A stretch of 64,000 nt of DNA, taken from the NCBI GenBank assembly GCA_031556545.1, contig JAVBST010000004.1:46886-110885 (forward strand). The letters are read 5' to 3'. The DNA comes from Oscillospiraceae bacterium. Lineage in GTDB: Bacteria; Bacillota; Clostridia; Oscillospirales; Acutalibacteraceae. The translations under genes and the position numbers were made by a program. The notes under the pieces are model-generated. The model had not been told where the DNA came from, searched no databases, and saw only the letters and a program-made list of their open reading frames with translations. Each line of letters opens with the position of its first letter. Positions within the stretch are counted from its first letter, which is position 1. Positions 39,120 through 58,341 of the stretch are shown here, piece after piece.

Positions 39120-39240
39120 ATTGTTTTAACCTCCCAGAAATTGGTGTGAAGACACCCACTATTTTTATATGCAGGCAACCTGCAATATGATACTCCGTAC
39201 TTGTGAAAACATCTCTCCCATTTTCATATCGAAAAAAGCA

Positions 39241-39275
39241 CAAGAAAAGCCCCGGCGAATTACTCCACCGGGGCT
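39241..39275 (-). terminator. Rho-independent terminator closing the ORF-less unit, just upstream of the amidase promoter region
   Basis: Minus strand reads AGCCCCGG-TGGAGTAATTCG-CCGGGGCT followed by TTTTCTTGTGCTTTTTT. Confidence 0.7.
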
Positions 39276-39276
39276 A

Positions 39277-40252: not shown

Positions 40253-40258
40253 AACTAT

Positions 40259-40287
40259 AGTATAAGATATTTCTAGGCAATTGTCAA
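40259..40287 (-). promoter_or_regulatory. Near-consensus sigma-A promoter driving the ORF-less unit
   Basis: Minus strand reads TTGACA, 17-nt spacer, TATACT. Confidence 0.55.
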
Positions 40288-40454
40288 TACATTATATGAA
40301 TTTTATATAAACATTATGTTAACTTTGTTATTTTTCCTCTCCATACTATGCCGCATTTGCCTACGGATATTTTGTCGAAAGCGCTTATGCGCAGGGACGG
40401 ACTCCGTTGAAGGCAGCGCAGCTTTGTGTGTTAGCGCGTTTCTGTTGCCTGGCA

Positions 40455-40494
40455 AACGGCGAGGCCCACCCCGGAAGAGGTGGCCCTCGCCGTT
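40455..40494 (-). terminator. 16-bp hairpin (one mismatch) about 150 nt downstream of the GH53 gene
   Basis: AACGGCGAGGCCCACC-loop-GGTGGCCCTCGCCGTT; no clear U-tract. Confidence 0.45.
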
Positions 40495-40643
40495 GCAATC
40501 AAATTGTTGGGGCTTATCCCGATGTGCTTCTCATTGTACTGTAACAGGGCATCAGTCCCTCAGCACCGCCCCGGGGGGAGGGATAATCACACATAGCACA
40601 AACCCCAAAAACCACAGCGCATTTATGGCCTCGGCGCAGTTGG

Positions 40644-43247
40644 CTAAATCAGCGAAACAACTACATCAAAGGCTTTTGCCGCACTCTTCTCGCCCAAGGA
40701 ATTGCCCGCGTAGGCATATAGGCGGCGAGGATTGCCCGCAGTACCGATCTTCACTTTGAGCACCCAAGTGCAAGTACCATCGGCATTCAGCGTCTTGCTG
40801 ACCACCGTCTTACCCAGACAGGCGGCCGCCGGGTCGCTAGCGGTGCTGATGTTGGCGCTGTAAGCACCCTCGGCATTGGTTTTGATGGTATAATCCGCCA
40901 ACACATTCACCTTGGCACTGCTGGGTGGCGTCACCGATATAACCTCCGGCGCCGCAGCGGTCTTGGTCACATTGATCTCACCCGCCAAGCCGGAGTTCAC
41001 ATAGCCGCTGCCGTCATAGTCAAACCAGACCCGCAGGTCACGTTTACCGGCGGTACCCACTTTCACCGTTGCCGTAAAGGTCTTCACATCGCCGGAAACA
41101 GTGGTCTGCAAATTCTGGAGACTAATCCCCCCGCCATTTTCATTGGTGAGAATCATACCCTGCACGCCGGCCGGGGCTTTTACTATAATCTGGAAGGGTT
41201 CGTCCACCAAAACCTTGCTCTTATCAATGGTAAAGGAGTTGGCGCCTACAGTTACCGTGGCTTTTACGCTCTTCATGTTGCCGTCCACGGTGGCGGTACC
41301 GTTCACCTCAAAGGATCCGGCACCGGCATAGGCAGCAGGAGCTACCGCATCCCAAGTCACCGGCACATCGCTCTTGGCGCCGGTAGTGACATCCATATTT
41401 TTAACCGTCGCCGGCAGCACCGGCGCAGTGCCCGGTGTCGTTGTGCAATAGATGCTGCTCTCCAACACATTCTTGGCATAGGCGTCTTTCCAGACCTGCA
41501 TGGATGCGCGGGCCGTACCATTGACTCCCGAACCCGTAAAGAATACGCTGGTGCCGTTCCACGGCCATACGCCCTGCCCCACGTTGTTAGGCACGTTGTT
41601 GATAATGGAGAGAAGATCCGCGATATCGTCGCCCTGGGACTGAATGGTATAGGGCGTGCCATCCGGCTTGTTATTATCATTGCGGGCGGTACCGGAATAA
41701 GGAGGCGAACATTCCGCAATATTGAGCAGGGTGCCGGGCAGCAGCTTGGAAATTTCCACAAGGTTGCGCTCCAGCTCGCCATAAGAACCGTGCCAATCCT
41801 GATAATATGAAACGCCAATACGGTCAAGTTTGCTGCCCATCTGAGACAGACGGCCCGTCAACTGCGTAATAAACTCTTTGACTTTGGGAAATTTTTCGCT
41901 GTCGGGCAGGGGCACTTTTGCCGCGCCTTCCACAACATTGAACGCACAGTGGACTTCCGTCATAATCGCCGTATTGTAGTCGGTGGAGACTTTCCGCACA
42001 GCACGCACACCCGCATCCACCAAACGGGCCAAACGCTGGCAGGAGTCGAGATATTGCTGGTATTGCGCTGTCGTCACTTCGTCTTTGTGCCAATACTTCC
42101 AGATGATACCCCCACCATATTCATGAGCGTAACGACCGGAGGTATAATAATGGTGCTTGTCTACGCCGGATATATCATCGTACTCCTTGCCCCACATCAT
42201 ACCGTTGGTGATTTCGTTACCGATGGCAACCACAGTGGGCGCCGTGCCCTGCGCCGCCAAATCGGCAATGGTCTTGTACGTGAAATCATAGGTGGCCTGT
42301 ACCAGCGCGTCGAAGGAGAGATCCGCCCAAGCATAGGGTTTGGGTTGATTCTGGGGGTCCGACCAGCTGTCCGCATAGTGGAAGTCGATCGCGGTATCCA
42401 CACCTGCCGCCTTGAGGGCCTTGGCTTCCAGTAGCGTCACCGCAGGACTGCATTGAGGCAGACCCGCACCGATCCCCCCCGAGTAATTACTGGGGTTGCC
42501 GTTGTTCTCATTCTTAGCTTCGTTCCAGATTCTCAGGCGGATGACATCCCAGCCGAAGTCTTTCACGAGTCCAAAAATGCTGTTGCCGGCGGCAGCCGAT
42601 TGCGGGTCGGCCAACCTGCCGCCGCGATAGCCTTCCATCGGGGGTGTATTGCCGGCATTATAGTAATATGTGTTGTTGTTGCTCCCCTGCTCCGACATGT
42701 CCGAACCGTTATACATGTTGTCACGCAGGTAATTGATAACACGGAATTCACGGATTGCTACCGGGACGCCGCCTGTGATGGTCAGTTTCAGATAACGGAG
42801 GCCTTTTTGGCTGAAAATGTCCGTGAATCCGCCCGCGACCTGTGTATTGCCCGTGCGGTCAGCCAACAGGGTCCACTTGCTCCCGTCTGTAGAACCTTCC
42901 AGCTTGTACTGGTAGGCGGCATAAGCGCTGTCAAAAACCACAACCGTTTTCCGCACGGCATCATAGGTGCCGCCCAGATCCAGCATGAACCAGCTGGCTG
43001 CATTGGTTTTGCCCGCGCTCCAGGTGGAATTGAGATCATCGTCCACCGCGAGTTTAGCCTGATCCGAATTCGTGCTCGCTGAAGCGGTAACCCAGTATTT
43101 CCCGGCAATGTTGCTCTCTTTCGGGGTATAGGCAGCTGTGCCGTTGAGGGCCGAGGTCGGCATCGCAAGTAGTGACGGAACCAAAATCAAGGCTGCCACC
43201 AGAGTCGCCATTACGCTTCTGCATAGACGTTTTCTGCTGTTCATCAT
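40644..43247 (-). CDS. Secreted CBM32 (F5/8 type C)-GH53 endo-beta-1,4-galactanase with Ig-like domains and a conserved C-terminal module
   Basis: Signal peptide present. Discoidin-like N-domain (AVDDDLNSTWSAGK...FRVINY). GH53 motifs GWDVIRLRIWN, VAIGNEITNGMMW, GVSYYQDWHGS, NIAECS. Confidence 0.8.
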   Translation of the reverse strand: MMNSRKRLCRSVMATLVAALILVPSLLAMPTSALNGTAAYTPKESNIAGKYWVTASASTNSDQAKLAVDDDLNSTWSAGKTNAASWFMLDLGGTYDAVRKTVVVFDSAYAAYQYKLEGSTDGSKWTLLADRTGNTQVAGGFTDIFSQKGLRYLKLTITGGVPVAIREFRVINYLRDNMYNGSDMSEQGSNNNTYYYNAGNTPPMEGYRGGRLADPQSAAAGNSIFGLVKDFGWDVIRLRIWNEAKNENNGNPSNYSGGIGAGLPQCSPAVTLLEAKALKAAGVDTAIDFHYADSWSDPQNQPKPYAWADLSFDALVQATYDFTYKTIADLAAQGTAPTVVAIGNEITNGMMWGKEYDDISGVDKHHYYTSGRYAHEYGGGIIWKYWHKDEVTTAQYQQYLDSCQRLARLVDAGVRAVRKVSTDYNTAIMTEVHCAFNVVEGAAKVPLPDSEKFPKVKEFITQLTGRLSQMGSKLDRIGVSYYQDWHGSYGELERNLVEISKLLPGTLLNIAECSPPYSGTARNDNNKPDGTPYTIQSQGDDIADLLSIINNVPNNVGQGVWPWNGTSVFFTGSGVNGTARASMQVWKDAYAKNVLESSIYCTTTPGTAPVLPATVKNMDVTTGAKSDVPVTWDAVAPAAYAGAGSFEVNGTATVDGNMKSVKATVTVGANSFTIDKSKVLVDEPFQIIVKAPAGVQGMILTNENGGGISLQNLQTTVSGDVKTFTATVKVGTAGKRDLRVWFDYDGSGYVNSGLAGEINVTKTAAAPEVISVTPPSSAKVNVLADYTIKTNAEGAYSANISTASDPAAACLGKTVVSKTLNADGTCTWVLKVKIGTAGNPRRLYAYAGNSLGEKSAAKAFDVVVSLI
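40647..41234 (-). other. Copy 1 of the shared ~195-aa C-terminal tandem-domain module (GH53 protein)
   Basis: Aligns by eye along its whole length with 50002..50586 and 52494..53069. Confidence 0.75.
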
Positions 43248-43706
43248 GCTCCTCCTAAATAATTGAATTTATCTGAAACTGTTGCCACAGACCGACAATA
43301 GCCCACGCCATTGGTCATTCTTGATTGTACAAAGGATATATGGCTATGATCTGATCCGTCTGCATGCAGCCTCATGCCTACATTTGAAACCCTGAATCTC
43401 GCCCCATATATTTTCCGTGCCGATATAAAAAAGCATTATTTTTCCATCCATTCTAGCAATTAAATGGTAACATGGATTCCCGAGCAAGTCTATGGACATT
43501 TATATCTTAAATATGCAAAATTCTCTCTTTTTAATGAAAAATATCAATAATCATGATTGTATTTGTGATAAGCAAAGGCCGCAATATCCAAAACGGAAAA
43601 GTCCATAATAATTTAAATGAAAACAACGTAAACGTTCAAGAGGGCTTTTCATTTGGCTAAAATTATGCTACAGTAGTGAAAGAAAGTGAACAAGAAGGGA
43701 AAATCG

Positions 43707-44258
43707 ATGAAATTCAATGCATTTGACGCCGGTATCGAACCCGGCGGATTGCGCAATAAAAGCGAGATTAAGATTTTGATCTGCTATATGCTCAGCAGTG
43801 TGGGCAAGCCTCTGACGCAGCAGAACATCAACGAGATTATTCAGGAGACAGGGCTTGCCAATTATTTCGAGGTCAATGACGCCTTGGCCGCTCTGGCCGC
43901 CACACAGAGCATCGCCTGTGTGGAAGAAGAGGGCACCCCCGCTTATTTGGCAACGGAGCTGACCCGAGAGGTGGCCAACACCTTGGAAACCGCCCTCCCC
44001 CTTTCCGTTCGCGAAAAAGCGGTACATGCCGCCGTACGGCTTTTAACCAAAATCCGCCGCGAGCAGGAAAACCGGATTGAGATCCGGCAAAACCAGGATG
44101 GCTACACCATCCGCTGCGCCATTTTGGACGGCAGCATGGAATTGATGTCCATTCAAGTGTATGTGGCCGACCTTATTCAGGCCGAAAGCATCAAGGCGCA
44201 ATTTCTCGAAAACCCGGCCGCAATATATAACGGCGTCATCAACCTATTGGTGGAATAG
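43707..44258 (+). CDS. DUF4364 family protein
   Basis: MKFNAFDAGIEPGGLRNKSEIKILICYML, typical of DUF4364. ATG after GAAGGGA. Confidence 0.65.
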   Translation: MKFNAFDAGIEPGGLRNKSEIKILICYMLSSVGKPLTQQNINEIIQETGLANYFEVNDALAALAATQSIACVEEEGTPAYLATELTREVANTLETALPLSVREKAVHAAVRLLTKIRREQENRIEIRQNQDGYTIRCAILDGSMELMSIQVYVADLIQAESIKAQFLENPAAIYNGVINLLVE

Positions 44259-44270
44259 GTTGATGACGCC
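44232..44270. terminator. 17-bp perfect hairpin between the convergent DUF4364 and araC genes; it embeds the DUF4364 stop codon
   Basis: GGCGTCATCAACCTATT-GGTGG-AATAGGTTGATGACGCC. Confidence 0.6.
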
Positions 44271-44293
44271 GTCCGGTGTTAGATTTGACTTTT

Positions 44294-45169
44294 TTATTTG
44301 GGTTGTGAGGCTTCCTGCTCCTGTTGCAGCTTGGCCAGTTTCTTAGCCCGCACATATTTGCTGGGCGGTACATTCTTGTACTTCTTAAAAATACGAGAAA
44401 AATAAAGCTGATCATTAAAGCCGGAGGAATATGCCGCCTCACTGACGGACAGGCCATGTTCCCGCAGCAGTTGACAGGCCTCATTAATGCGGAAGCGGGT
44501 CAGGAACTCATTGGGCGGAATATTCATGTATTTAATGAATAGTCTGTATAAATGGCTCCTGGAAATGCCCGCGCTTTCGGCAATCTCATCCACATTAATG
44601 TTGCGGGAATAGTTATATTGGATAAACCGCAGGGCCTTCTCTACATATTCATAATCCCCGCCGGAAGCGCTGTCCTCAAAAGGCTCCGCAAAATCCATCA
44701 GCGTTGCCAAAAACAGATATAGTCCGCCAATCATGCGCGCTTCGCTGCGCGTGGAGGTGCCGTTGGCGTTATAGATATCCAGCATCGCCGATTTGATGGT
44801 GTCGTTTTCGCCATAATTATTCACAGGATTGGCCTGCGTCAACCCTGTTGGGCCCATCAGCCGGTCGGCGTCCGCGCCGTTAAAGCCCACCCAGTAATAT
44901 TCCCATGGATTTTGCTGGTCGGCGCAATAGCTAACCACCTTAGTGGGGACAATCAAGAAAATATCGCCGGCTTTCAACTGATAGGTGTGGGTTCCGTCAT
45001 GATAGGTTCCTTCGCCCGAGGATATGTAATGCAGCAGATAGTGGTTGCGCATGGCCGGACCCCAACTGTGATTGGGTTCGCATTTTTGAAACCCGCAGCT
45101 GTACACGGCCAGCCCAATGCTTTCCTGAAACGGCACTTTAAATGAATGCTTAAAAACGGAACTGTCCAT
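44294..45169 (-). CDS. AraC-family transcriptional regulator (cupin sensor plus HTH)
   Basis: C-terminal AraC HTH (ISRSHLYRLFIKY...YSSGFNDQLYFSRIFKK). Divergent from galK. Confidence 0.85.
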   Translation of the reverse strand: MDSSVFKHSFKVPFQESIGLAVYSCGFQKCEPNHSWGPAMRNHYLLHYISSGEGTYHDGTHTYQLKAGDIFLIVPTKVVSYCADQQNPWEYYWVGFNGADADRLMGPTGLTQANPVNNYGENDTIKSAMLDIYNANGTSTRSEARMIGGLYLFLATLMDFAEPFEDSASGGDYEYVEKALRFIQYNYSRNINVDEIAESAGISRSHLYRLFIKYMNIPPNEFLTRFRINEACQLLREHGLSVSEAAYSSGFNDQLYFSRIFKKYKNVPPSKYVRAKKLAKLQQEQEASQPK

Positions 45170-45493
45170 GTCACCGGTCCCTTCCTTTCCACGGCTTGAT
45201 TACAAACACCAATTGTGTTCAGTACGGAAATCAGAAGATCCAAACACCCTTTTTGAACCGGCTGCGCCGGGGCATCCGCTCCGCAGGATCCACGGCCGCG
45301 GTCACAGGGAGTGGTTCATTAACATCAACCTGTTGCTTTCCCTCATTATAACCTCAAAATCGAATTTCTGCAATATTGTGCAACAATTATCCATATATTT
45401 GATAGAATTATTCCGGGTATTTTCGCGCAAAAAGTGCTATGATATTATACAGATTGATAAAGCGCTCACAAACTAACCGGTAAAGGAGGGATA

Positions 45494-45556
45494 ATGGGCA
45501 TTGGCGAATTTGGCTGTTTTAACGCATGGCGCCGCCCTTGCCCTGACATATGGTAG
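45494..45556 (+). CDS. 20-codon upstream ORF (MGIGEFGCFNAWRRPCPDIW) overlapping the galK start
   Basis: AAAGGAGGG lies 5 nt upstream of its ATG. Its TAG stop overlaps the galK ATG region (ATATGGTAG). galK has no SD of its own. Confidence 0.3.
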   Translation: MGIGEFGCFNAWRRPCPDIW

Positions 45557-46833
45557 ATATTTCAAAACTGGCAGAACAATTGCGCGAGGGCCGTTTTGAC
45601 AGCGTGCTTTCACCTCTCTATGTGACGCCATCCGAAGTGGAAGTGCAGCGCACACGGTACGAAAAGGCCACCGCCCGCTTTGCGGAAATCTTTGGCGGGG
45701 ATCGTCAGGTTTCTCTATTCAGCGCCCCGGGCCGTACCGAAGTGGGCGGCAACCATACCGACCATAACCATGGCCGTGTGCTGGCCGCAAGTGTGAATCT
45801 TGACGTCATCGCGGTGGTGGCCCGCAATGAGGATTCTGTCATCCGCATTCAGTCGGAAGGCTACCTCATGGATACGGTGCATCTCAGCGATCTCTCGCCC
45901 CAAACAAACGAGGTCGGCAAATCGCGGAGTTTAATCCGCGGCATATGCGCCCGCATCCGGGAACTCGGATACGAAATCGGGGGATTTGACGCCTATACTA
46001 CCTCGGCGGTGCTCAAAGGCTCTGGCCTTTCTTCCTCTGCAGCCTTTGAAGTGCTGGTGGGCACCATCCTCAACCACCTCTTCTGTGAAGGCGCCATTGA
46101 TGCCGTCCGTATTGCGCAAATCGCACAGTATGCCGAGAACGCCTATTTTGGAAAGCCTTGCGGTCTCATGGATCAAACGGCTTCCTCGGTCGGCTCTTTT
46201 GTAACCATTGATTTCCTGGATCCCGAACATCCGGTGATCGAAACCGTTCAATTTGACTTTAGCGCCTGCGAACACGCCTTATGCATTGTGGATACCGGCG
46301 GCAACCACGCGGATTTGACAGAGGACTACGCCTCCGTCCGCAGGGAAATGGAAGCGGTGGCTGCATTCCTGGGACAGAAAGCCCTGCGCGATGTGGAGCA
46401 GGCAGACTTTTTGGCTGCGATTCCGGCTTTGCGCAAGGAGCTGGGCGACCGCGCCATTTTGCGCGCCATTCACTTTTTTGGTGACAATGCCCGTGTGCTG
46501 GCGGAAGTTGAGGCTTTAAACCAGGGTGATTTTGAAACCTTCAAGCAACATATTATTGCTTCGGGTCTATCTTCTTATCAATACAATCAAAATGTATACA
46601 CCTGCAAGAACCCCTCGGAACAGGGCTTATCCTTGGCCTTGGCCCTTTCCCAGCAAATTTTGGAAGGGCGGGGTGCTTGGCGTGTGCATGGCGGCGGCTT
46701 TGCCGGTACCATTCAGGCCTTTGTGCCCCAGGATCTGCTGCATACTTATCAGCGCCGCATGGAAGAAGTTTTTGGCCCTGGCTCATGCTATATTCTTTCC
46801 ATCCGGCCGGTGGGCGGCGTCAAAGTCCTTTGA
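45550..46833 (+). CDS. galK: Galactokinase (GHMP kinase family)
   Basis: APGRTEVGGNHTDHNHG and the GHMP motif KGSGLSSSAAFEV; adjacent to galT. Confidence 0.75.
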   Translation: MVDISKLAEQLREGRFDSVLSPLYVTPSEVEVQRTRYEKATARFAEIFGGDRQVSLFSAPGRTEVGGNHTDHNHGRVLAASVNLDVIAVVARNEDSVIRIQSEGYLMDTVHLSDLSPQTNEVGKSRSLIRGICARIRELGYEIGGFDAYTTSAVLKGSGLSSSAAFEVLVGTILNHLFCEGAIDAVRIAQIAQYAENAYFGKPCGLMDQTASSVGSFVTIDFLDPEHPVIETVQFDFSACEHALCIVDTGGNHADLTEDYASVRREMEAVAAFLGQKALRDVEQADFLAAIPALRKELGDRAILRAIHFFGDNARVLAEVEALNQGDFETFKQHIIASGLSSYQYNQNVYTCKNPSEQGLSLALALSQQILEGRGAWRVHGGGFAGTIQAFVPQDLLHTYQRRMEEVFGPGSCYILSIRPVGGVKVL

Positions 46834-47042
46834 TAGTTGGTCTACTGTCCAACCCTGCGTTCATGGAACCAGCGTAAACGCTGGCCTGATCGTTTCGTGT
46901 CCTGTTTTGGATCGCTATATGCCAAAGCCAATCAGGTACATTCCTTGTCCCCGAGGCGCAACTTTATAAACCGTAGCCCGGCGAATACCGCACCGCTCTG
47001 CGGCGGGGAAATCTATTACAATATTTTCGGGAGGTTCTTCCT

Positions 47043-48056
47043 ATGGCTGAGTTAAGATGGAATCCACTGATACAAGATTGGGTAATGATTGCCTCACATC
47101 GACAAGACCGCCCCCAGATGCCCAATGACTGGTGTCCTTTCTGTCCGGGTTCCGGTAAGGTCCCTGACCACTATATGGTATATGAATATGATAACGACTT
47201 CCCGGCTCTATCTCAGGCACCCCTGCCGCCAGACGATGTTGTCACCCCTTTCTTTAAGGCTAGGCCTGCCTATGGGAAATGTGAAGTCATTCTATATTCC
47301 CCGGAGCATACTACGACTCTCCCGGAATTGTCTGTGCCGCATATCCATAAACTGGTTGATTTGTGGGCCGAACGCTTTGACGCGATTCGGCAGGATGAAA
47401 ATATTAAGTATGTTTTTATTTTTGAAAACCGTGGCGAAGTGGTGGGCGTGACCATGCCCCATCCCCACGGCCAAATTTACGGCTATTCCCATATTCCCAA
47501 AAAACTCGAAATCGAGTTAAATTCCAGCAAAGCCCATTATGACGACCATCATAGCTGTCTATTCTGCGATATGCTGCAAGCGGAACTGGATTTCAGCCGC
47601 CGGGTTATTTTCAGCACCCCTTATTTCACGGTCTTTTTGCCCTTTTTCTCTGAATATCCCTATGGCGTCTATATCATGAGCAACCACCATGTGGGCGATA
47701 TTACACAGCTCAATGACATACAGCGGGAAGATTTGGCCAGAGTTCTGCAGGAAACCACCGGTATGCTGGATGCCCTGTTTGATTATCAATTCCCCTATAT
47801 GATGTGTATGCACAATGCCCCTGTGAACAGCGGCGATACCAGCGACTATTTCCATTTTCACATTGAATTCTTTCCCCCTATGCGCTCCGCTGACAAGCAG
47901 AAATTCAACGCCTCTTCCGAAACAGGCGCTTGGGCACACTGTAATCCAACCGCACCCGAAGAAAAAGCGCAGGAACTGCGCACTGCCCACCAACGGTTTT
48001 TGCAGGCCAAATTATGCCCGATGGAAGAAGCGGAAGAAAAAGTACAGCATTTTTAG
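47043..48056 (+). CDS. galT: Galactose-1-phosphate uridylyltransferase (HIT-type)
   Basis: CPFCPG zinc site and HPHGQIYGY active-site His-Pro-His. Confidence 0.9.
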   Translation: MAELRWNPLIQDWVMIASHRQDRPQMPNDWCPFCPGSGKVPDHYMVYEYDNDFPALSQAPLPPDDVVTPFFKARPAYGKCEVILYSPEHTTTLPELSVPHIHKLVDLWAERFDAIRQDENIKYVFIFENRGEVVGVTMPHPHGQIYGYSHIPKKLEIELNSSKAHYDDHHSCLFCDMLQAELDFSRRVIFSTPYFTVFLPFFSEYPYGVYIMSNHHVGDITQLNDIQREDLARVLQETTGMLDALFDYQFPYMMCMHNAPVNSGDTSDYFHFHIEFFPPMRSADKQKFNASSETGAWAHCNPTAPEEKAQELRTAHQRFLQAKLCPMEEAEEKVQHF

Positions 48057-48194
48057 GCAAAAACAGTCCCATTATGGGATTTGTTTTGCAGCCGATATGC
48101 GAAGGGATCTAAAAAGGAGCTATCGGCTTGGCTGACAGCTCCTTTCGCATTTTTGAGAATCAATGTTATTAATGTGAAATATAATTTCTCTATA

Positions 48195-48223
48195 TTGAAT
48201 ATTTTTATATAAAATAGTATAAT
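48195..48223 (+). promoter_or_regulatory. Consensus-like promoter for the GH43 gene
   Basis: TTGAAT, 17-nt spacer, TATAAT. Confidence 0.5.
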
Positions 48224-48300
48224 GGCATCGTGCAGATTTTGCCAGTGACTACTCGCTGTCAAAAGAGCTGCATCAATAAAAAATGGAGAGAAGGATTAAA

Positions 48301-50589
48301 ATGAAGAAAATGAAGCGATGGCTGGCACTGGTGCTGGCGCTCGCGGTGCTGACGGGTACCCTGACACTTACATCCGCAGCATCCGACAACGCGCAGACCA
48401 ATGCGACTTACTACAACAACGCAGCCTTCAGTGCCGCCGACCCCGCAGTCATGCATGATCCCGTTTCCGGCAACTACTACGTTTATTCTACCGACGGCGC
48501 CACCAGCGGAACACGTTTCGGGATTTTCCGCTCGGCAGATCTGGTGACCTGGGAAAGACTGAATGGCGCCATGCCCAGTACAGGCCAATGGGGCAATGAT
48601 TGGTTCTGGGCGCCCGAATGCTACTACAACGAAAAAACGGGCTGGTATTTCCTCTTTTACGCGGCCAGAATCCGCAGCAATACGGATCTGTGTGAGCAGC
48701 ATTTCGGATTCCGCTCCTTTGACGAAGCTTGCAAGGTGGGAGTAGCCGTTTCCCGCAGCCCGGAGGGCCCCTTCACCAACATTGCGTCGACCCCCATCGA
48801 CTATTACCCATACGATCCCAACTACTATGATGTCAACCAAATTATGCCCAATGTCAACACCCCGCCCAAAACCTTGGAAGAAGGCATGACTGCCCCTAAG
48901 GGTACATATCTGCCCTACATTGACCCCAATGTCTACTTCGATGACAATGGAAAAATCTACCTATATTTCTCCCGGAACTGTTACCGCGACTGGGTTTGGG
49001 ATCCCGACCTGGGCAAGTACCTTGAGGAGTCCAACATCTACGCGGTGGAGCTGACAACAGACTGGTGGACCGATCCTGACGCAAAAACCCTGCCCGCTGT
49101 TGCGCCCGCCTACCGCAACGTGAACAAAGCGCCGACCGATGCCGAATCGGTGCGCAAGGATGGCTTTTTCCCCGTCATCAACTATGCCATGGAAAAGCAG
49201 GAATGGGAAAACGCGCATATCAACCGTGTCCCCACCAATCGCCGCTGGGCGGAGGGTTCCACCACCATCAAGTATTACTTTGACAAAAACGGCGACGGCA
49301 TAAAGGAGCCCTATTACTACATGTTCTATTCCTGCAACAACTGGGAAAATGAATGGTACGGCGTCGGTTACGCCGTGGCCAGCAATCCATTGGGACCTTG
49401 GAACAAATATGATCTCAACCCCATCATTAAGCTCAATGCCGATATGTCCGGTACCGGACACGGCAGCGTCGCCTGGTCTCCCGACGGCAGCGAGCTGTTC
49501 TATGTCTATCATGCCCGCCCCGGCATTACCGGCGGTCGCCGGCTTTATCAGGACCGCTTGTTTATCGACGAGACCAAGATTGATGCCGATACGGGACTTC
49601 CGACCGTCTCCGTGAAACAGTCGGCCAATGATCAACCTGTCCCTTCGGGCGTGGCCCCCTATCTTGTCAAGGCCGACACATCTTCTCTCCGGCTACAGCC
49701 CGCCGGAACCTCGCAGATTAACTTTACTGTGCAAACGGCACAGGGCACAAAGCTTGCCCTCTCGAACGCACTCAACCGCGTAGTCGCCACCATAGACGAT
49801 CCGAGCATCGCTACGGTTACGGCAACCACGGCAGGGGCGGCGACTGTCACAGCCGTCAGTGAGGGCCAGGCAACGCTGACCCTGCAATATCAGCGGCGCT
49901 CTTCGGACGGCAGCTACTATGACGTCACCAACACCGTAAACGGTGTAACGACACCCGCCAAGCTGACGGTTCCGATTGCGGTCATGTCAAAAATCCCGAC
50001 CATTGCGATTGATAAGACACAGGCCGCCATCAACGAAAACTTTACGGTATCGGTGGAAACGGATGTCAATGTCGCAAAACTCCTGCTCGCCAACGAGAAC
50101 GGTATGCCCTTGAGCGTCAAGAGCCTGACTTCCAGAACAGAGGATGACAAAAAAATCTTTACGGCAACCATGTGCCTCGGCACCGCGGGCAACGACAGGC
50201 AAATCCGCGTTGCGCTGGATTATGGCAAGGGCAAGGGCTATGTGGACAGCGGCGTATTCGGTACCATCGATATCACCAAGACCAGCGAAGCACCCAAGGT
50301 GCTTAAGGTCGAGGCCCCGGCAACCGCACTCGTGAATGTGGCCGCCAATTATGCGATCACCACCAATCTTGAAGGCTCATACAGCGCCAATTTACGCGCC
50401 AACGGAGCTAGCAGTGATTTGGGGAAAACAGTCGTTAGCAAGACGATGAACCCGGATGGGAGCTTCACTTGGGTCATCGCGGTCAAAATAGGCACCGCCG
50501 GCAACCGCGCTCTTAACGCGTATGCAGGCAACTCCATCGGGACTCGCAGCGATCCCTACCCCTTCGCACTGACCGTGAAATTGTTTTAA
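48301..50589 (+). CDS. Secreted GH43 family glycoside hydrolase with a Big_2 domain and the conserved C-terminal module
   Basis: Signal peptide MKKMKRWLALVLALAVL. GH43 five-bladed propeller strings (DPAVMHDPVSGNYYVYSTDG, WAPECYY, EGSTTIKY). Big_2-like ATVTAVSEGQATLTL. Confidence 0.8.
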   Translation: MKKMKRWLALVLALAVLTGTLTLTSAASDNAQTNATYYNNAAFSAADPAVMHDPVSGNYYVYSTDGATSGTRFGIFRSADLVTWERLNGAMPSTGQWGNDWFWAPECYYNEKTGWYFLFYAARIRSNTDLCEQHFGFRSFDEACKVGVAVSRSPEGPFTNIASTPIDYYPYDPNYYDVNQIMPNVNTPPKTLEEGMTAPKGTYLPYIDPNVYFDDNGKIYLYFSRNCYRDWVWDPDLGKYLEESNIYAVELTTDWWTDPDAKTLPAVAPAYRNVNKAPTDAESVRKDGFFPVINYAMEKQEWENAHINRVPTNRRWAEGSTTIKYYFDKNGDGIKEPYYYMFYSCNNWENEWYGVGYAVASNPLGPWNKYDLNPIIKLNADMSGTGHGSVAWSPDGSELFYVYHARPGITGGRRLYQDRLFIDETKIDADTGLPTVSVKQSANDQPVPSGVAPYLVKADTSSLRLQPAGTSQINFTVQTAQGTKLALSNALNRVVATIDDPSIATVTATTAGAATVTAVSEGQATLTLQYQRRSSDGSYYDVTNTVNGVTTPAKLTVPIAVMSKIPTIAIDKTQAAINENFTVSVETDVNVAKLLLANENGMPLSVKSLTSRTEDDKKIFTATMCLGTAGNDRQIRVALDYGKGKGYVDSGVFGTIDITKTSEAPKVLKVEAPATALVNVAANYAITTNLEGSYSANLRANGASSDLGKTVVSKTMNPDGSFTWVIAVKIGTAGNRALNAYAGNSIGTRSDPYPFALTVKLF
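50002..50586 (+). other. Copy 2 of the shared C-terminal tandem-domain module (GH43 protein)
   Basis: See copy 1. Confidence 0.75.
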
Positions 50590-50697
50590 ATTGCTGACCC
50601 CTGTTTTCATAACGCACCCCAGCAAAACCGCATAACTTCCCACAAGATGAGCTCCCAAAAAGCTAACCAATATATTACTGCAGCATAGGCTGAAATG

Positions 50698-50733
50698 AAT
50701 CACTCCCCGCGGTAGAAACTGCGGGGAGTGATT
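50698..50733 (+). terminator. 13-bp perfect hairpin downstream of the GH43 gene
   Basis: AATCACTCCCCGC, 10-nt loop, GCGGGGAGTGATT; weak U-tract. Confidence 0.5.
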
Positions 50734-50824
50734 CGTGGAGCGCCTCAGAGGGCAGTGAATCGGATCAGAATGTGCTGTGCTACATTTCGCTCGGCTTCCC
50801 GGAGGGGATGCCCCGTACAGCCGG

Positions 50825-50854
50825 TTGACAGAACATGGTAATAAGTGGTATTAT
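50825..50854 (+). promoter_or_regulatory. Candidate promoter for ugd with extended -10
   Basis: TTGACA, 18-nt spacer, TGgTATTAT; leaves a leader of about 165 nt. Confidence 0.4.
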
Positions 50855-51023
50855 GGTTTTCAGAACGGCAGCGCCTTTGCATGAGGCTATTCCCCCTCCC
50901 CTATTTTCCCTTTTGGGTTCTCGCCCGTTCCTCTGCGCACAAACACGGAACCTGCCGGGATAGCGAGCCTTTCCTTTCATTTTCCTTCGCAATACGAATA
51001 AAACGTTGGGAGCAAGTGGTATT

Positions 51024-52235
51024 ATGGAAAAAACAATGAAAATCACCGTTGCAGGAACGGGCTATGTCGGACTTTCCAATGCCATTCTGTTGGGACAGCG
51101 CCATGAAGTCTGGGCAGTGGATATCCTCCCCGAAAAAGTTGAAATGATTAACCGTAAGCAATCCCCGATTGTTGACAAGGAAATCGAGGAGTATCTTGCA
51201 ACCAGAGAATTGCATCTGACCGCCACAACAGATGCTGAAAAAGCATATAAGGACGCTCATTTCATCATTATTTCCACCCCCACCAATTATGACCCTCAGG
51301 TCAATTTTTTTGATACCTCCAGTGTTGAATCCGTGATTGAAACGGTCATACGGGTGAACCCGGAGGCCATCATGGTCATCAAATCCACGGTGCCGGTCGG
51401 CTTTACCGAGGATATGCGCCAAAAATACCACAGCGATAACCTCATCTTTTCGCCGGAATTTTTGCGTGAGGGCCAGGCGCTGTATGACAACCTATATCCC
51501 AGCCGCATTATCGTCGGCGCGCCCAAGCAGCGAAGAGTTCGGGCAGAAGCCGAAATCTTTGCAAACCTCCTGGCGGAGGGCGCAATAAAAGAGGATATTC
51601 CCACATTGATCATGAATCCCACGGAAGCAGAGGCCGTTAAGCTCTTTTCCAACACCTATTTGGCTTTGCGTGTATCTTATTTCAATGAATTGGATACGTA
51701 CGCCGAGGTGCGTGGTCTGGATACCAAGTCCATCATTGAAGGCGTTGGACTCGATCCACGCATTGGCACCCAATACAACAATCCATCTTTCGGCTATGGA
51801 GGCTATTGCCTGCCCAAAGACACCAAGCAACTGCTGGCCAACTACAATAGGGTTCCCAACAACATTATCGGCGCGATCGTGGAAGCCAACCGCACCCGAA
51901 AAGACTACATTTCCGACCGGATTTTGCAATTGGCCGGCTATCCGCAAACCCCTGATCCCATCATCGGGATATACCGCCTGACCATGAAAGAAGGCAGCGA
52001 CAATTTTCGGCAAAGCTCCATTCAGGGCGTTATGAAACGCATCAAAGCCAAGGGTGTCGAAGTTGTTGTATACGAGCCAACACTCACGGAGGACCATTTC
52101 TACAACTCACGGGTCATTCGAAAACTAGAGGAATTTAAAAACATATGTCATATAATCGTTGCAAACCGGTATAACGCCGATTTGCACGATGTCCTGAATA
52201 AGGTCTACACCCGGGATTTGTTCCTCAGGGATTGA
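51024..52235 (+). CDS. ugd: UDP-glucose 6-dehydrogenase
   Basis: [13 protein letters not shown] Rossmann motif and catalytic GGYCLPKD. Confidence 0.9.
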
Positions 52236-52266
52236 TATGCGCAATATGACTCCGGCATTTATATGG

Positions 52267-52300
52267 CGTGTTGACAGATCTTGTCGACACGCTCTTTCTT
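52267..52300 (+). terminator. Terminator after ugd
   Basis: CGTGTTGACA-GATCT-TGTCGACACG followed by CTCTTTCTT. Confidence 0.5.
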
Positions 52301-52316
52301 ATGCCATCTATCCGGC

Positions 52317-52357
52317 AAAAAGCGGCATCCCTTCTCGCGAAAGGGGATGCCGCTTTC
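52317..52357. terminator. Bidirectional terminator between the convergent ugd and GH97-like genes
   Basis: AAAAAGCGGCATCCC-loop-GGGATGCCGCTTTCT. Confidence 0.65.
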
Positions 52358-52490
52358 TAAACAGGATACGATTACTTTGGCAATTACAATAGGAAACATC
52401 TCGGTAGTTTTATCCATTGCCAACGTCATACTCGCGGTTCATACGGATAAGCATTATGACCCCGAGCGGGCATCGCGGCCGCGATGCCTC

Positions 52491-55400
52491 TTAGATCAAG
52501 GTGACTGCAACTTGGAAGGGATAGGGCGCGCTCTGCTCCCCTTGCACATTCCCCGCGTAAGCGTCAAGCGACCGATAGCCCGCTGAGCCGATCTTGACAC
52601 CGAGTACCCACGTACAAGTACCGTCGGCATTCATGGTCTTACTGACGATCGTCTTGCCCAATTTACTGCTGCCGCTGTAAATGTTCGCACTATAGGATCC
52701 TTCCGCATTTGTGGTAATGGCGTAGCTGGCCAGCACATTCGCTTTGACGGTTGCGGGCGCTTGCACCTTTACAACAGCAGGCGCTTCCTTGGTGAGGGTA
52801 ACATCCATGAACGCAGATGCGTTGGCGGCCACATAGCCTTTACCGTCTCCGTAATCAAGCAGGAGCGTAAATTGGCGGTCCTTGCCGGCGGTTCCTACTT
52901 TCATAGTCGCCGTAATGGTTTGCTTGCCGTTCTCGGCCGTGGATACAAGGCTTTGCAGGGAAACGGGCTGTCCGTTTGCGTTGGCAACGAGGATGCGCCG
53001 AACTGCCGCCGAGCATTGTACGGTAACGCCAAAGGTTTCATTGACCGCGACTTTTTCTTTATCAAAGATCATACTGCAGAGATCTTTTTCGGCCATCGCA
53101 ATGACATTGCCTAACGTAACCGCTGCCGCATAGATCCCTGCATAGCTTAACTGGCCATGCAGCACGGCCTGCGCGTCTTCAACCGCTTGCCCCAGCAGCG
53201 CTTTATTAGGGACCTCTCCCAGTTGGCCGTATAAGGCTTTCGCCTTTTCGATCATCGCCCTTAACGGCGCGGTGTTGACAGATCGATCGGATAGCAGAAT
53301 TTTGGCGTCACACCAGTTGGCATGGTCAAAATTGATGCCGTCTCCTCCATCCTTGGCCAGCAGGCGAATTGTTTTGGCATTTTCCGGCACAGCCACGTCA
53401 ATCACCCCATAAGATGACATCTGCGTCATGTTTCCGGAATCATAGACGGACACGCCGTCTATGAACACCTGGAAGGCGACACGGTTGGTCGTGTTGCCGT
53501 TGTAAGTGCTGATACTGCAAAAAGCCTGAAATTTTTCGACACCCAAATCAGTAATATCGTAGGTGAGCCCCGTAATAGCGTGGCTGCCGATCCCCTTCTC
53601 GAAGGTTACCACTTTGCCCTCGCCGTCACGCCCGGTAAGGGGATTCCCGCTGCGGGCCTTATCTTTGACGCACTCCCCGCGGTCGCTTTTGGCGGAAGGG
53701 GTCATGTCACTGAGATAGAGTACCCGCTCATCACTGGGAGTTTTGAAGTTAACGGTATAGGTCACCGACTTGAACGCGTTCGCAGCCGTGATAGAAGCGC
53801 TGCCCGGCAGTGCGCTTACCTGCTTGACAGCCGTCACTTGACTGCCTTGCGTCAGGGCGAGTGAAATCTCCGGCACCAAATCGCCGGGCCTCAACTGTAC
53901 CTCATAGCTGAATTTATCCACCGCAAAACCTTCTATGGATTTTCCGTTGATGAGCAAATCGGTGGCGGGGCGCTTTAGCTCCTCTATTTGGTTAATGGCA
54001 GCCACCAGTACGTCGTAATTTGTAACCAACAGTTTGGCATACGCAGGCAACGCATTGAATTTTGACAAAACGGTGTTGACGTACGCCTCTTTTTCCGCTA
54101 GATTCTCTCTCGTAATTGCGCCGATACCCTGAATGGCGGTGATGACTTCCACCACCAAATCCTGAAAATCGGTATATAACGGATATTTTATAAGGTCATC
54201 CGCGGTCGCGGGGGTAAAGCGCACGGCAAAGCCGGTGTTATTGTGCATCGCTCTACTAAGCGCCATTGTAGCATTCACAATAAAGGTATCCACTAACACA
54301 TCGTTTACTTTTGTTTCATCCGAGGGGTTGGTATAAATCTCCGCGCGGTAGGGTGTGCCCGCCGTCAGGAAGGACAAATTGACCGCCAGATTTCTCTCCA
54401 CGGCAGAAAGGCTGGAAAGGTAGAAATCGCCGCCACTCCGACGCAGCACGGTTGCATATTCTTCCATTTTAGATTCGATATAGTCGCTCTCATCCCATAC
54501 GGTGGGCATGTCATCCCAGAGCTTGACTTCCGGCTTCACCGCCGTGCCGCCCGTGGGCGCGTCATACCAATAGAGATACTGCAGGGGGCTATAGAACATG
54601 AGGCTGCCAGCCATGCGGAAGGCTCTGCTGGTATTACGGGTCAGGGCATAGCACCAGGTATGGTCCGCCGCGCCTGCCACCATGCGGGTGAAGAGATATC
54701 CTAAATCTTCGCTTGCCAAGGGATTTTCCTCATCCCCGTGGATCGCTTCCAGGGTTAAGAGGTTGGGATATGTGCGCTCGTAGCCGGTAGGCAGCATTTC
54801 GTCATGGATATCGACCACCAGTTTGTTATCGGCCGCGATTTTCACCCAGTCGTACACCATTTTGGTAGTTGCCTGAGATCCGATGGGGACAAAGCCGAAT
54901 TTGATGCCGTCGATGCCCCAATCGTTTACATAATGCTTAAACAGGGCGTCCAACTGCCCCTTCTGCCATTGATCCTGCAAATGCCGGAAATTCACATATA
55001 CCACCAGCTTGATGTTCCTGGCATCGGCATAGGCTTTGATTTCGTTGTAATCCAACCCGGCAATGGTTTGCCAGGGATCACTGGACATATTGCCTTCGGG
55101 TCCATACCAGCCCGCGTCAAAGTGCGCATAGGTGATGTTATGCTCCGCAGCGTAATCAATGCGCTGTTTTGCGCCCGCCGTATTGAGAGTCGTCACGCGC
55201 AGGGCCTTGCCGGGCTCAATCCAGGAGGTATCGGCGATAGCACTGGGCGGATTGAGATTCTTGACCAGATAGTTATGGTTCAGCAAGTCGCCTTCCCGGC
55301 CTCCGATGACAAAGGTCCGCCAGGAAGAAGCAAAATCGCCTTTGGCAAGATTCACGTCCACCTCGTTTTTGATCTGTGTCGGATCCAGGCTCGAGTTGGT

Positions 55401-56207
55401 CGTGACCCCGTTAAACAAGGTGCGGATCGTCCCGCTTTCGGCGCCGTCCTGCGTGAAATGCACACGGGTATAATCCACCTGATTCGCTTCGGTGATGGAG
55501 AGCGCATACCCATTGCCGATAAGCGTCAAGGGTCGGAAATACCCCCTGTCCACAGCTTTCAACTCACTCACGGGCGTTTTGATTGCATGGGTCTGGTTGC
55601 CGTTCAGATGGACATAAGCCGTGGCGGTATTGTCGAGATTAAAATAGGTGAGTTCTTGTTTTATGACAAACTGAGGTTTTACATTATCTTGTGGGAAGAC
55701 ATAGCGGAAGGTCACGCCCTCATTGTATGCCCGTAAAACCACATCCATTTTGGTGCCGTCCCCTTTGGATTTCAGGTGGACGATTGCTTCATTGTACTGG
55801 TTGGGAATTTGTTTGCGCTCGCTGAGGAGATCCGTCCATGAGCTGTCCACCTGATTCGCAGTCACAGAAAGCAACTCGAAATTGGTGTTGAAGGTGCCGT
55901 AATCCAATTCCATACCCAGCTTTGAATTCTCAACCACACTTTTGCCCTTATAATCTATTTCATAATAGGGCGTGCCGCTACTGTCCAGCCAAAAGCTGGC
56001 GGTAATATTTTGATCAGAGGATTTTACTTCCCGCAAATGTTGGACATCGCTGTATTTTTCGGTTGCAGGCCGGTATGTAAAAGCGCTGTCAGCATCCAAC
56101 GCAAATACACCCAGAGATGGGGTAAGGGCCGTCATGGTAAAAATAATAGCCAAAAGGCAAGCGATCACTTTGTAGCTTTTTTTCAACTGAATCTTCCTTT
56201 CTTTCAT
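52491..56207 (-). CDS. Secreted GH97-like glycoside hydrolase with FIVAR-like helical linkers, an NPCBM domain and the conserved C-terminal module (1238 aa)
   Basis: Start at MKERKIQLKK (signal peptide). GH97-like strings: SWRTFVIG, SWIEPGKAL, GIKFGF, VVDIHDEMLPTGYERTYPNLLTLEAIHGDE, FTRMVAGAADHT. NPCBM: YLSDM...KGIGSHA...DHANWCDAKI. Confidence 0.6.
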   Translation of the reverse strand: MKERKIQLKKSYKVIACLLAIIFTMTALTPSLGVFALDADSAFTYRPATEKYSDVQHLREVKSSDQNITASFWLDSSGTPYYEIDYKGKSVVENSKLGMELDYGTFNTNFELLSVTANQVDSSWTDLLSERKQIPNQYNEAIVHLKSKGDGTKMDVVLRAYNEGVTFRYVFPQDNVKPQFVIKQELTYFNLDNTATAYVHLNGNQTHAIKTPVSELKAVDRGYFRPLTLIGNGYALSITEANQVDYTRVHFTQDGAESGTIRTLFNGVTTNSSLDPTQIKNEVDVNLAKGDFASSWRTFVIGGREGDLLNHNYLVKNLNPPSAIADTSWIEPGKALRVTTLNTAGAKQRIDYAAEHNITYAHFDAGWYGPEGNMSSDPWQTIAGLDYNEIKAYADARNIKLVVYVNFRHLQDQWQKGQLDALFKHYVNDWGIDGIKFGFVPIGSQATTKMVYDWVKIAADNKLVVDIHDEMLPTGYERTYPNLLTLEAIHGDEENPLASEDLGYLFTRMVAGAADHTWCYALTRNTSRAFRMAGSLMFYSPLQYLYWYDAPTGGTAVKPEVKLWDDMPTVWDESDYIESKMEEYATVLRRSGGDFYLSSLSAVERNLAVNLSFLTAGTPYRAEIYTNPSDETKVNDVLVDTFIVNATMALSRAMHNNTGFAVRFTPATADDLIKYPLYTDFQDLVVEVITAIQGIGAITRENLAEKEAYVNTVLSKFNALPAYAKLLVTNYDVLVAAINQIEELKRPATDLLINGKSIEGFAVDKFSYEVQLRPGDLVPEISLALTQGSQVTAVKQVSALPGSASITAANAFKSVTYTVNFKTPSDERVLYLSDMTPSAKSDRGECVKDKARSGNPLTGRDGEGKVVTFEKGIGSHAITGLTYDITDLGVEKFQAFCSISTYNGNTTNRVAFQVFIDGVSVYDSGNMTQMSSYGVIDVAVPENAKTIRLLAKDGGDGINFDHANWCDAKILLSDRSVNTAPLRAMIEKAKALYGQLGEVPNKALLGQAVEDAQAVLHGQLSYAGIYAAAVTLGNVIAMAEKDLCSMIFDKEKVAVNETFGVTVQCSAAVRRILVANANGQPVSLQSLVSTAENGKQTITATMKVGTAGKDRQFTLLLDYGDGKGYVAANASAFMDVTLTKEAPAVVKVQAPATVKANVLASYAITTNAEGSYSANIYSGSSKLGKTIVSKTMNADGTCTWVLGVKIGSAGYRSLDAYAGNVQGEQSAPYPFQVAVTLI
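52494..53069 (-). other. Copy 3 of the shared C-terminal tandem-domain module (GH97-like protein)
   Basis: See copy 1. Confidence 0.75.
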
Positions 56208-56569
56208 CTTGTCATCATTCACAAGACACGCTATTACTCCGGCATGCAATACAAGGATTTTGGGGGGATCCCCTAGGGCCAAAGTAATAGGTTCCACATA
56301 ATGGGTATCTCTTTTGTAAAGGCAACCGGGTTGTTATCCTCTCCCTCCCGGATAAAAATTATATAATATCTCTAGAAAAATAGAAAAAAGTTGATATTAC
56401 ATCAATATTATAAAGGAAATTCTTGGGAGAGAATAGCGCCAATTGTACCGAAATTATGGATTATTATCCCTTAATCTTAACTATATTTCATATGAGTTGT
56501 ACAAGATCGTCCTGGATTTCCCGAAAAGTAAATAGCTGTTTTGTACATTTTCTCTGCATAATTTTATAC

Positions 56570-58264: not shown

Positions 58265-58341
58265 ATTATTCGATTTTTTGGAGCAAAATGAAGCTTGAAA
58301 TCGAAACCTGTATTCTCCACATCAATTTAGTGAGGTGCTCT

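Follow-up and report, generated by a model that had tools for sequence, protein, structure and literature searches.

A C-terminal tandem Ig-like module shared by secreted glycoside hydrolases of unrelated families in an Oscillospiraceae bacterium

Introduction

Three secreted glycoside hydrolases (GH) that are encoded close together in the genome of an Oscillospiraceae bacterium (Acutalibacteraceae) have unrelated catalytic domains and end in the same C-terminal region, which raises the question of what this region is and what it does there. The genes lie in a stretch of 64,000 nucleotides (assembly GCA_031556545.1, contig JAVBST010000004.1, positions 46,886 to 110,885 of the forward strand), called the window below. 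A first-pass annotation, made from the sequence alone, proposed that a module of about 195 amino acids (aa) had been shuffled onto different catalytic cores, and that it was a device for surface retention, substrate targeting or complex assembly, analogous to a dockerin or to a C-terminal domain (CTD) tag. The safest statement after the analysis presented here is that the region is a portable, non-catalytic, strictly C-terminal tandem immunoglobulin (Ig)-like module, carried by secreted proteins of a clostridial lineage.

Results

The module and its three carriers

The module comprises the last 196 aa of the GH53 protein, the last 195 aa of the GH43 protein and the last 192 aa of the GH97 protein, in each case up to the stop codon. 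The three copies are colinear with a few short gaps, as had been noticed by eye, and they have 50-56% identity and 79 invariant columns. When each copy was compared with the window by tblastn, only the other two were found (E 1e-52 to 1e-67, the next-best match having E>0.9), and a hidden Markov model (HMM) of the wider family, searched against the six-frame translation of the window, returned the same three copies only.

The assignment of the carriers to unrelated catalytic families holds in Pfam. The GH53 protein, a secreted CBM32-GH53-Big_4 endo-beta-1,4-galactanase of 867 aa, is encoded by an open reading frame (ORF) at 40647..43247 on the minus strand, and its orthologues carry the name arabinogalactan endo-1,4-beta-galactosidase. 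A signal-peptide-like leader is followed by an F5_F8_type_C domain, the fold of carbohydrate-binding module (CBM) family 32 (aa 54-159, E 1.5e-11), the GH53 domain (aa 222-571, E 2e-48), Big_4 (aa 599-652, E 3e-9) and the module (aa 672-867). The secreted GH43 protein of 768 aa (ORF 48283..50586, plus strand) has a similar leader, GH43 Pfam stretches from aa 50 (E 5e-29), a weak Big_2-like region at aa 483-566 (E 0.005, below threshold) and the module at aa 574-768. The third carrier is a secreted GH97-NPCBM protein (52494..56297, minus strand), for which the ORF gives 1268 aa from a GTG; the true start is likely the MKERK at nt 56207, which gives 1238 aa, and both forms are present in the protein collection. 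It is built from GH97_N (aa 91-351, E 5e-52), GH97 (aa 370-575, E 4e-37), GH97_C (aa 600-694, E 1e-15), NPCBM (aa 860-1000, E 1.5e-26), a stretch of about 75 aa and the module. Leaders resembling signal peptides are seen by eye on all three proteins. In agreement with the first-pass annotation, Pfam (E<=1) found no SLH, dockerin, choline-binding or Gram-positive/LPXTG anchor domain in any of them, and each chain finishes in its last beta-strand, right at the stop.

The stretch between NPCBM and module in the GH97 protein (53070-53300, aa ~1000-1075) has no Pfam match and looks alpha-helical by eye. FIVAR domains lie upstream of the module in two close relatives, directly before it in P0002 (a GH3 protein) and about 220 residues before it in P0003 (a GH2 protein), and a helical element may repeatedly accompany the module.

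Two Ig-like domains

Each module consists of two domains of about 95-100 aa which are the result of an internal duplication. By blastp the halves show at most 30% identity over 76 residues, and the repeat was tested with an HMM built solely from the C-terminal domains of family members. This model matches the N-terminal domains of all three window proteins with domain E-values from 2e-10 to 3e-13: the first domain of the GH53 protein (~96 aa, 40947..41234, minus strand; 2.2e-10, also supported by the alignment and the AlphaFold2 strands), that of the GH43 protein (50002..50286, plus strand; 2.8e-12, with alignment) and that of the GH97 protein (52788..53069, minus strand; 3.4e-13, with alignment). 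The terminal domains were delimited by the alignment and cover 40647..40946 (minus, ~100 aa, ending in VVVSLI), 50287..50586 (plus, ending in LTVKLF) and 52494..52787 (minus, ending in VAVTLI), respectively.

From the three-sequence alignment AlphaFold2 predicted two successive all-beta domains with seven strands each, at a mean predicted local distance difference test score (pLDDT) of 87.5. A single terminal domain, modelled with 34 family sequences and serving as evidence for that of the GH43 protein, reached a pLDDT of 94.8 and a predicted template-modelling score (pTM) of 0.85; the two models together give 7-8 strands per domain. At the level of the fold the module is thus predicted to be an Ig-like/E-set beta-sandwich. 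Foldseek searches of PDB and BFVD gave generic matches only, to Ig, FN3, IPT, PKD and E-set sandwiches, including hundreds of Ig-domain matches with probability 1.00. The best template-modelling (TM) score for a single domain was 0.64 in PDB, to the E-set domain of a sulfite dehydrogenase, and 0.68 in BFVD; the other top PDB matches were generic Ig I-set and C1-set domains, and no solved chain in PDB reached a TM above ~0.7 over the domain, which we used as criterion for a close fold.

The motif K(V/I)GTAG..R had been taken for the end of each repeat unit. While the duplication itself stands, the motif does not end the unit: it is the E-F turn, reached after about two-thirds of each domain, with two strands still to come. 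The family signature, found once per domain, is VN(E)xF.V.V.T ... L.NE.G ... DG..TW ... (V/I)GT(A)G.R.(F/L).V.A ... G ... I.V. Isopeptide domains of the CnaB/SpaA type were also considered and rejected, as the conserved Lys/Asn(Asp)/Glu triad is absent.

Absence from the family catalogues

The three modules gave only chance matches to Pfam-A and NCBIfam (E<=10), with 11-15 bits as compared to cut-offs of 24-35, and none of 34 C-terminal domains from the family reached a gathering threshold in either collection (E<=1). The Pfam hints below threshold among these 34 were to Big_3_5 (E 3.5e-4, one domain), Big_6 (E 0.0019, two domains) and CHU_C (E 0.012, two domains), and Big_13 also appeared in this way among a few family members. 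CBM_X2, to which the clostridial X2 modules belong, is absent from the matches of the modules (E<=10) and of the 34 domains (E<=1). Profile searches of PDB sequences gave best E-values of 0.077 and 0.83, both chance, and no CBM of known structure was found, by sequence or by fold, among the top Foldseek matches. The proposal that the module is unassigned is therefore borne out in Pfam-A, NCBIfam and the PDB sequences.

Searches of other collections were also negative. No match to the module was found by tblastn in the PLSDB plasmids, the Ruminococcus albus 7 megaplasmids included. Two back-translated motif scans of the GTDB species representatives found no relative, the patterns being so narrow that only a close subfamily can be called absent. 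A word-indexed protein search found nothing with two alignments of the module although relatives are representatives in that very collection, and its negatives are unreliable for this family. The literature gave nothing specific on a described Ig-like cell-wall anchor of clostridial glycosidases, nor on the Sequence Read Archive runs. We conclude that the module is a real, uncatalogued sequence family, best described among the Ig-like accessory or terminal modules of secreted carbohydrate-active enzymes.

Relatives and their architecture

To list relatives, 1.84 billion cluster representatives were searched exhaustively with HMMER, which gave 188 proteins at E<=1e-3, 74 of them at E<=1e-10. 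The position of the module was mapped on the best 150. It ends at most 15 residues from the C-terminus in 90 and 16-60 residues from it in 55, which makes 145/150, and where both domains are matched in full the chain nearly always stops directly after the last strand. The positional exceptions are P0007 and P0012, with several tandem single-domain copies, P0144, where the module is N-terminal, and P0024. The last of these, with 8 matching stretches and an LPXTG anchor, was rejected as a family member, since it is a Big_1-repeat protein in which weak scores were summed, and is probably spurious. A regular-expression scan found no LPXTG near the C-terminus of true members, and the motif together with a membrane anchor only in P0024; dockerin-like loop pairs were absent from all 150 proteins, and neither batch of carriers has SLH, dockerin or Gram-positive anchor families among its 25 commonest.

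A crude test recognised a signal-peptide-like N-terminus in 96 of 147 carriers, and the failures are mostly short fragments or mis-started proteins. The catalytic cores are of families GH2, GH3, GH30, GH38, GH43, GH53, GH78, GH97, GH106, GH127 and PL11. There are also many esterases, a pectate-lyase-like fold, a metallo-beta-lactamase/esterase fusion, peptidase M28, CotH, and BspA-type leucine-rich repeat (LRR) or beta-propeller proteins, and CBM32, CBM6, NPCBM and FIVAR are frequent as additional domains. The module is portable across unrelated catalytic cores, almost always at the extreme C-terminus and mostly on proteins with signal peptides.

The place of the module in GH53 orthologues

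What stands in the place of the module in orthologues that lack it is the most informative functional evidence, and the comparison was made for the GH53 core. The window protein is 62-66% identical to its closest orthologues up to about aa 667, that is, almost to the point where the module starts (aa 672). After CBM32-GH53-Big_4, the orthologues P0159, P0160 and P0161 continue with a cohesin-like domain and three SLH repeats, P0163 and P0164 with a cohesin-like domain and a dockerin, others (e.g. P0232) with a dockerin alone and P0190 with SLH alone, while the remaining ones have FIVAR, Big_3_5 or nothing. Precomputed Pfam matches for 120 GH53 homologues include dockerin in 9 and SLH in 5. The same Pfam scan readily detects SLH in P0159, P0161 and P0190. 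P0167, itself truncated, is the sole GH53 orthologue with the module.

In P0159-P0164 the cohesin-like domain follows directly after Big_4 and precedes SLH or dockerin, and the presence of a cohesin together with an anchor or a dockerin on one enzyme is unusual. As this domain occupies the place of the first domain of the module, a link between the two was considered; the similarity (36% identity in 86 residues, 28 of them from the shared upstream region) is not significant and the link was rejected.

Age, constraint and charge

The similarity between the copies in the window is not due to recent gene conversion, which is ruled out by synonymous sites near saturation: identity at third codon positions is 33-45%. 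Shuffling is a fair name for the spread of the module between GH, polysaccharide lyase (PL), esterase and non-enzyme carriers, but the event is ancient. At the amino acid level the terminal domains of the three proteins are 57-65% identical and the inner domains 43-49%. Together these values point to purifying selection, strongest on the distal domain.

The terminal domains are also basic, with isoelectric points (pI) of 9.0 (GH53), 9.4 (GH43) and 9.1 (GH97), as compared to 4.9-5.2 for the remainder of each protein. A comparison of the module with the remainder of the same protein shows it to be the more basic part in 59 of 61 family members.

Hosts and carrier contigs

All 20 relative clusters that were looked up come from metagenome assemblies or metagenome-assembled genomes, and 17 of them are singletons. 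Run SRR23967709 contains a contig that matches the window at 100% identity. In the same run, two adjacent genes, GH3-CBM6-GH30 and GH3, each have the module, and a GH3 carrier adjoins SpoIIGA, two sigma-70-family sigma factor genes, Coat_F and SpoVS; from their position the two sigma factor genes are probably sigE and sigG. The tetranucleotide composition of these contigs is at the lower edge of the window's self-similarity range, and they may, with three more carriers, share the genome of the window, which would then hold at least six. More distant carriers adjoin SpoIVA and SipL, or lie near sortase genes. Because of the sporulation genes on the carrier contigs, the hosts are taken to be spore-forming Gram-positive Clostridia.

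A carrier with a CotH domain (L008 8091-13477, ENA ERZ28614383 scaffold_894) lies directly downstream of SipL and SpoIVA. The question is raised if some carriers are spore-surface rather than vegetative-cell proteins.

The window also has two tandem paralogous genes of the Sulfatase family (PF00884), 58288-60057 and 60123-61841, both on the plus strand, for proteins of ~570-590 aa. By their size they look like lipoteichoic acid synthases of the LtaS type, which would be consistent with a Gram-positive envelope bearing anionic polymers.

Gene neighbourhood

The three enzymes sit in a galactan/galactose utilisation neighbourhood. By Pfam, an AraC-family regulator (44294-45169, minus strand), a galactokinase (45550-46833, plus) and a galactose-1-phosphate uridylyltransferase (47043-48056, plus) lie between the GH53 and GH43 genes, and a gene for UDP-glucose 6-dehydrogenase (51006-52235) between those for GH43 and GH97. 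The gene that separates the GH53 gene from the regulator (43686-44258, plus strand) codes for a DUF4364 protein (E 2e-43).

At the other side of the GH53 gene, about 1.5 kb (39120-40640) between an Amidase_3/SPOR gene and the GH53 stop has no ORF longer than 113 aa. It contains a strong promoter-like site at 40287-40259 (minus strand, 11/12 matches) and a terminator-like hairpin with a 12-bp stem at 39275-39248 (minus strand), and may be what is left of a gene or else encode an RNA that has not been annotated. Rfam had no match anywhere in the window.

Discussion

The reading that we tentatively favour, and which we place a little short of probable, is that the module serves for non-covalent retention of proteins at the surface of the cell that produces them. 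The enzyme would be exported via Sec, and the terminal, more conserved domain would bind a component of the producer's own envelope, perhaps an anionic polymer of the wall or a receptor protein on the surface. A stalk would be formed by the inner Ig-like domain. The binding would be non-covalent, and the enzyme together with the sugars that it releases would be held at the cell surface. The Ig-like pair would in this way stand in for the SLH repeats or the dockerin of the closest GH53 orthologues, and do what CBM37 does in Ruminococcus albus.

Several observations point in this direction: the portability of the module, its strict terminal position, the SLH or dockerin found in the same place in orthologues, the conservation between paralogues, the basic terminal domain and the absence of a second anchor. 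The non-enzyme carriers CotH, BspA-type LRR and peptidase M28 are typical cargo of cell surfaces and cellulosomes, which also supports a tag, and the many copies per organism and the envelope of a Gram-positive spore-former count for surface retention as well. The earlier idea of a device analogous to a dockerin or a CTD is upheld in part, by the terminal position, the signal peptides and the SLH and dockerin of the GH53 orthologues; which of retention, targeting and assembly is concerned cannot be separated from sequence.

There are also observations that weigh against surface retention. The residues conserved throughout the family are mainly Gly, Asn and Thr of turns, core hydrophobics, Trp and one near-invariant Arg per domain, and this pattern could be purely structural. 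In P0007 and P0012 the several tandem copies of the single domain resemble an ordinary stalk repeat. The terminal domain carries a net charge of just about +2.5, and since the module has a median pI of 5.3 in the wider family, its basic character belongs only to the window lineage with its nearest relatives. The carriers are enriched in families active on pectin and arabinogalactan (GH53, GH43, GH78, GH106, GH127, PL11, GH2), which fits a substrate-binding module equally well. Finally, the place of the module is empty in many GH53 orthologues, or is taken by FIVAR or by other modules of Ig-like type, and for this reason its occupation by SLH or dockerin is suggestive and not diagnostic.

By function the nearest known counterparts are CBM37, SLH, dockerin, WxL and the CTD of type IX secretion. 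CBM37 is a lineage-specific C-terminal module of R. albus through which enzymes are held at the cell surface and which also binds a wide range of polysaccharides (PMC4081043). It is made of ~100-aa units, sometimes in tandem, on diverse GH, carbohydrate esterase (CE) and PL cores and on non-catalytic proteins, and it occurs in high copy number per genome within one lineage, with dockerins in place of it in orthologues from a sister species (PMC4081043). The present module is alike in its ~100-aa units, its varied cargo and in standing where orthologues have dockerins, and the GH53 comparison follows the same logic by which CBM37 has come to be seen as what R. albus has instead of dockerins (PMC4081043). 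Unlike the module, CBM37 may also lie elsewhere than at the extreme C-terminus, and its binding has been shown experimentally, whereas the module is known from its sequence and predicted structure. No relationship was seen with one CBM37 example: the C-terminal ~105 aa of R. albus 7 WP_013483737 scored ~0 bits with the HMM, and by blastp the best E was 0.43, over 10 residues. We infer from matching architecture that this protein is the entry YP_004090078 of PMC4081043, the GH11-CBM22-GH10-CBM37 xylanase.

The SLH and type I dockerin domains share with the module the place after CBM32-GH53-Big_4, and like it they are portable and terminal and found on diverse secreted enzymes. The structures differ, however, as SLH is helical and the dockerin EF-hand-like, and the module is an Ig-like sandwich without calcium-loop pairs and without a Pfam match to SLH or Dockerin_1. 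The WxL domain of enterococci, lactobacilli and Listeria, which is C-terminal and binds peptidoglycan non-covalently, resembles the module in being terminal, all-beta and carried by proteins with signal peptides. WxL domains are always last, have 160-190 aa in an all-beta structure, occur on signal-peptide proteins of Gram-positive bacteria and are inferred to be the wall anchor of large multi-domain proteins (PMC9772566). They have two WxL motifs on adjacent strands of a single domain, unlike the two conserved Trp of the module, which belong to separate repeated domains; there was no WxL match in Pfam for the module or the 34 C-terminal domains, and no small-WxL/DUF916 cluster in the window. 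With Big_1, Big_2, Big_3_5, Big_6 and Big_13/E-set domains the module has the general fold in common, but the signature VN(E)xF...NE.G...TW...GT(A)G.R and the fixed terminal tandem are specific to its own family.

The first of the other explanations, that the module is a new CBM for a plant cell-wall polysaccharide, such as the pectic rhamnogalacturonan/arabinogalactan matrix, and not for the bacterium, we find somewhat unlikely. The beta-sandwich accessory modules of carbohydrate-active enzymes are frequently CBMs, and GH3, esterases and the pectate-lyase-like fold can be added to the pectin- and arabinogalactan-active families above. The genes in the window stand beside galK, galT and the AraC-type regulator, a mildly basic domain would suit anionic pectin, and aromatic residues are kept in the terminal domains of the window subfamily, in NY(A/T)I, EG(S/A)YSAN and AYAGN, and in PYPF in two of the three. 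Throughout the family, on the other hand, there is no conserved aromatic platform, and the peptidase M28, CotH, LRR/beta-propeller and metallo-beta-lactamase-fold carriers have no obvious glycan substrate in common. Many carriers already have CBM32, CBM6 or NPCBM. CBMs may be N-terminal, internal or C-terminal, whereas this module is terminal in 145/150, and the top Foldseek results contained no CBM of known structure. Binding to the cell and binding to a glycan do not exclude each other, as both are found together in CBM37.

Could the module instead be an inert appendage, without a specific ligand, that gives solubility, stability or protease resistance or acts as a stalk, and that has been spread by domain accretion? 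The generic Ig/E-set fold would allow this, and the conservation can be put down to the needs of that fold, with turn glycines, core residues and a possible Glu-Arg pair. The tandem single-domain copies of some relatives are like the stalk repeats of surface proteins, and terminal Ig-like or FN3-like domains without a defined role are common on bacterial glycosidases. A spacer at the end of a chain would, however, have nothing to space. The terminal domain is also the more conserved one between the old paralogues, and the strict terminal position on unrelated cores and the SLH or dockerin in its place in orthologues point to a specific role. We regard an inert appendage as unlikely.

It is also conceivable that the module works as a dockerin does, by plugging into a cognate receptor on a scaffold or surface protein in a multi-enzyme complex. 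The cargo, with GHs, CEs, PLs, CotH, LRR proteins and peptidases, mirrors the dockerin proteins of ruminococcal cellulosomes (PMC4081043). Several GH53 orthologues have a dockerin in the same place, and there are many carriers per organism. As neither the window nor the retrieved loci contain a candidate receptor or scaffold, and the module has no pairs of calcium-binding loops and no Pfam match to dockerin or cohesin, such a role seems quite improbable. A secretion or sorting signal like the CTD of the type IX secretion system (T9SS), recognised and perhaps cleaved by a dedicated machinery, is hardly credible, although both are Ig-like sandwiches placed at the very end of many unrelated secreted hydrolases and there are weak CHU_C matches (2/34, E 0.012). 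That system is to our knowledge confined to Bacteroidota, whereas the hosts here look like spore-forming Gram-positive Clostridia. The signal peptides of the carriers are ordinary Sec ones, there are two domains in tandem and not one, and no T9SS sorting-domain model of NCBIfam (including TIGR) or Pfam rises above noise.

A new C-terminal tag of this kind would justify a Pfam or CAZy family of its own, for which some 190 clusters at 50% identity are at hand. If the module is a structural appendage only, the gain is limited to better domain annotation. If a ligand is found, the module would offer a compact handle (~22 kDa) for enzyme display.

For the Clostridia themselves, surface retention by the module would have wider consequences. 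The known systems by which uncultured Clostridia of guts and digesters retain their enzymes are few, namely cellulosomes, SLH, sortase and CBM37. It is possible, if still rather doubtful, that the Ig-like pair represents an unrecognised class of non-covalent surface tag in uncultured spore-forming Clostridia, a third solution beside SLH and cohesin-dockerin, by which a secretome of glycan-degrading enzymes, peptidases, CotH and LRR proteins would be displayed on a Gram-positive cell through a wall or receptor ligand of its own. If it is such a tag, annotators could use it to flag a surface-displayed or co-localised secretome in these lineages.

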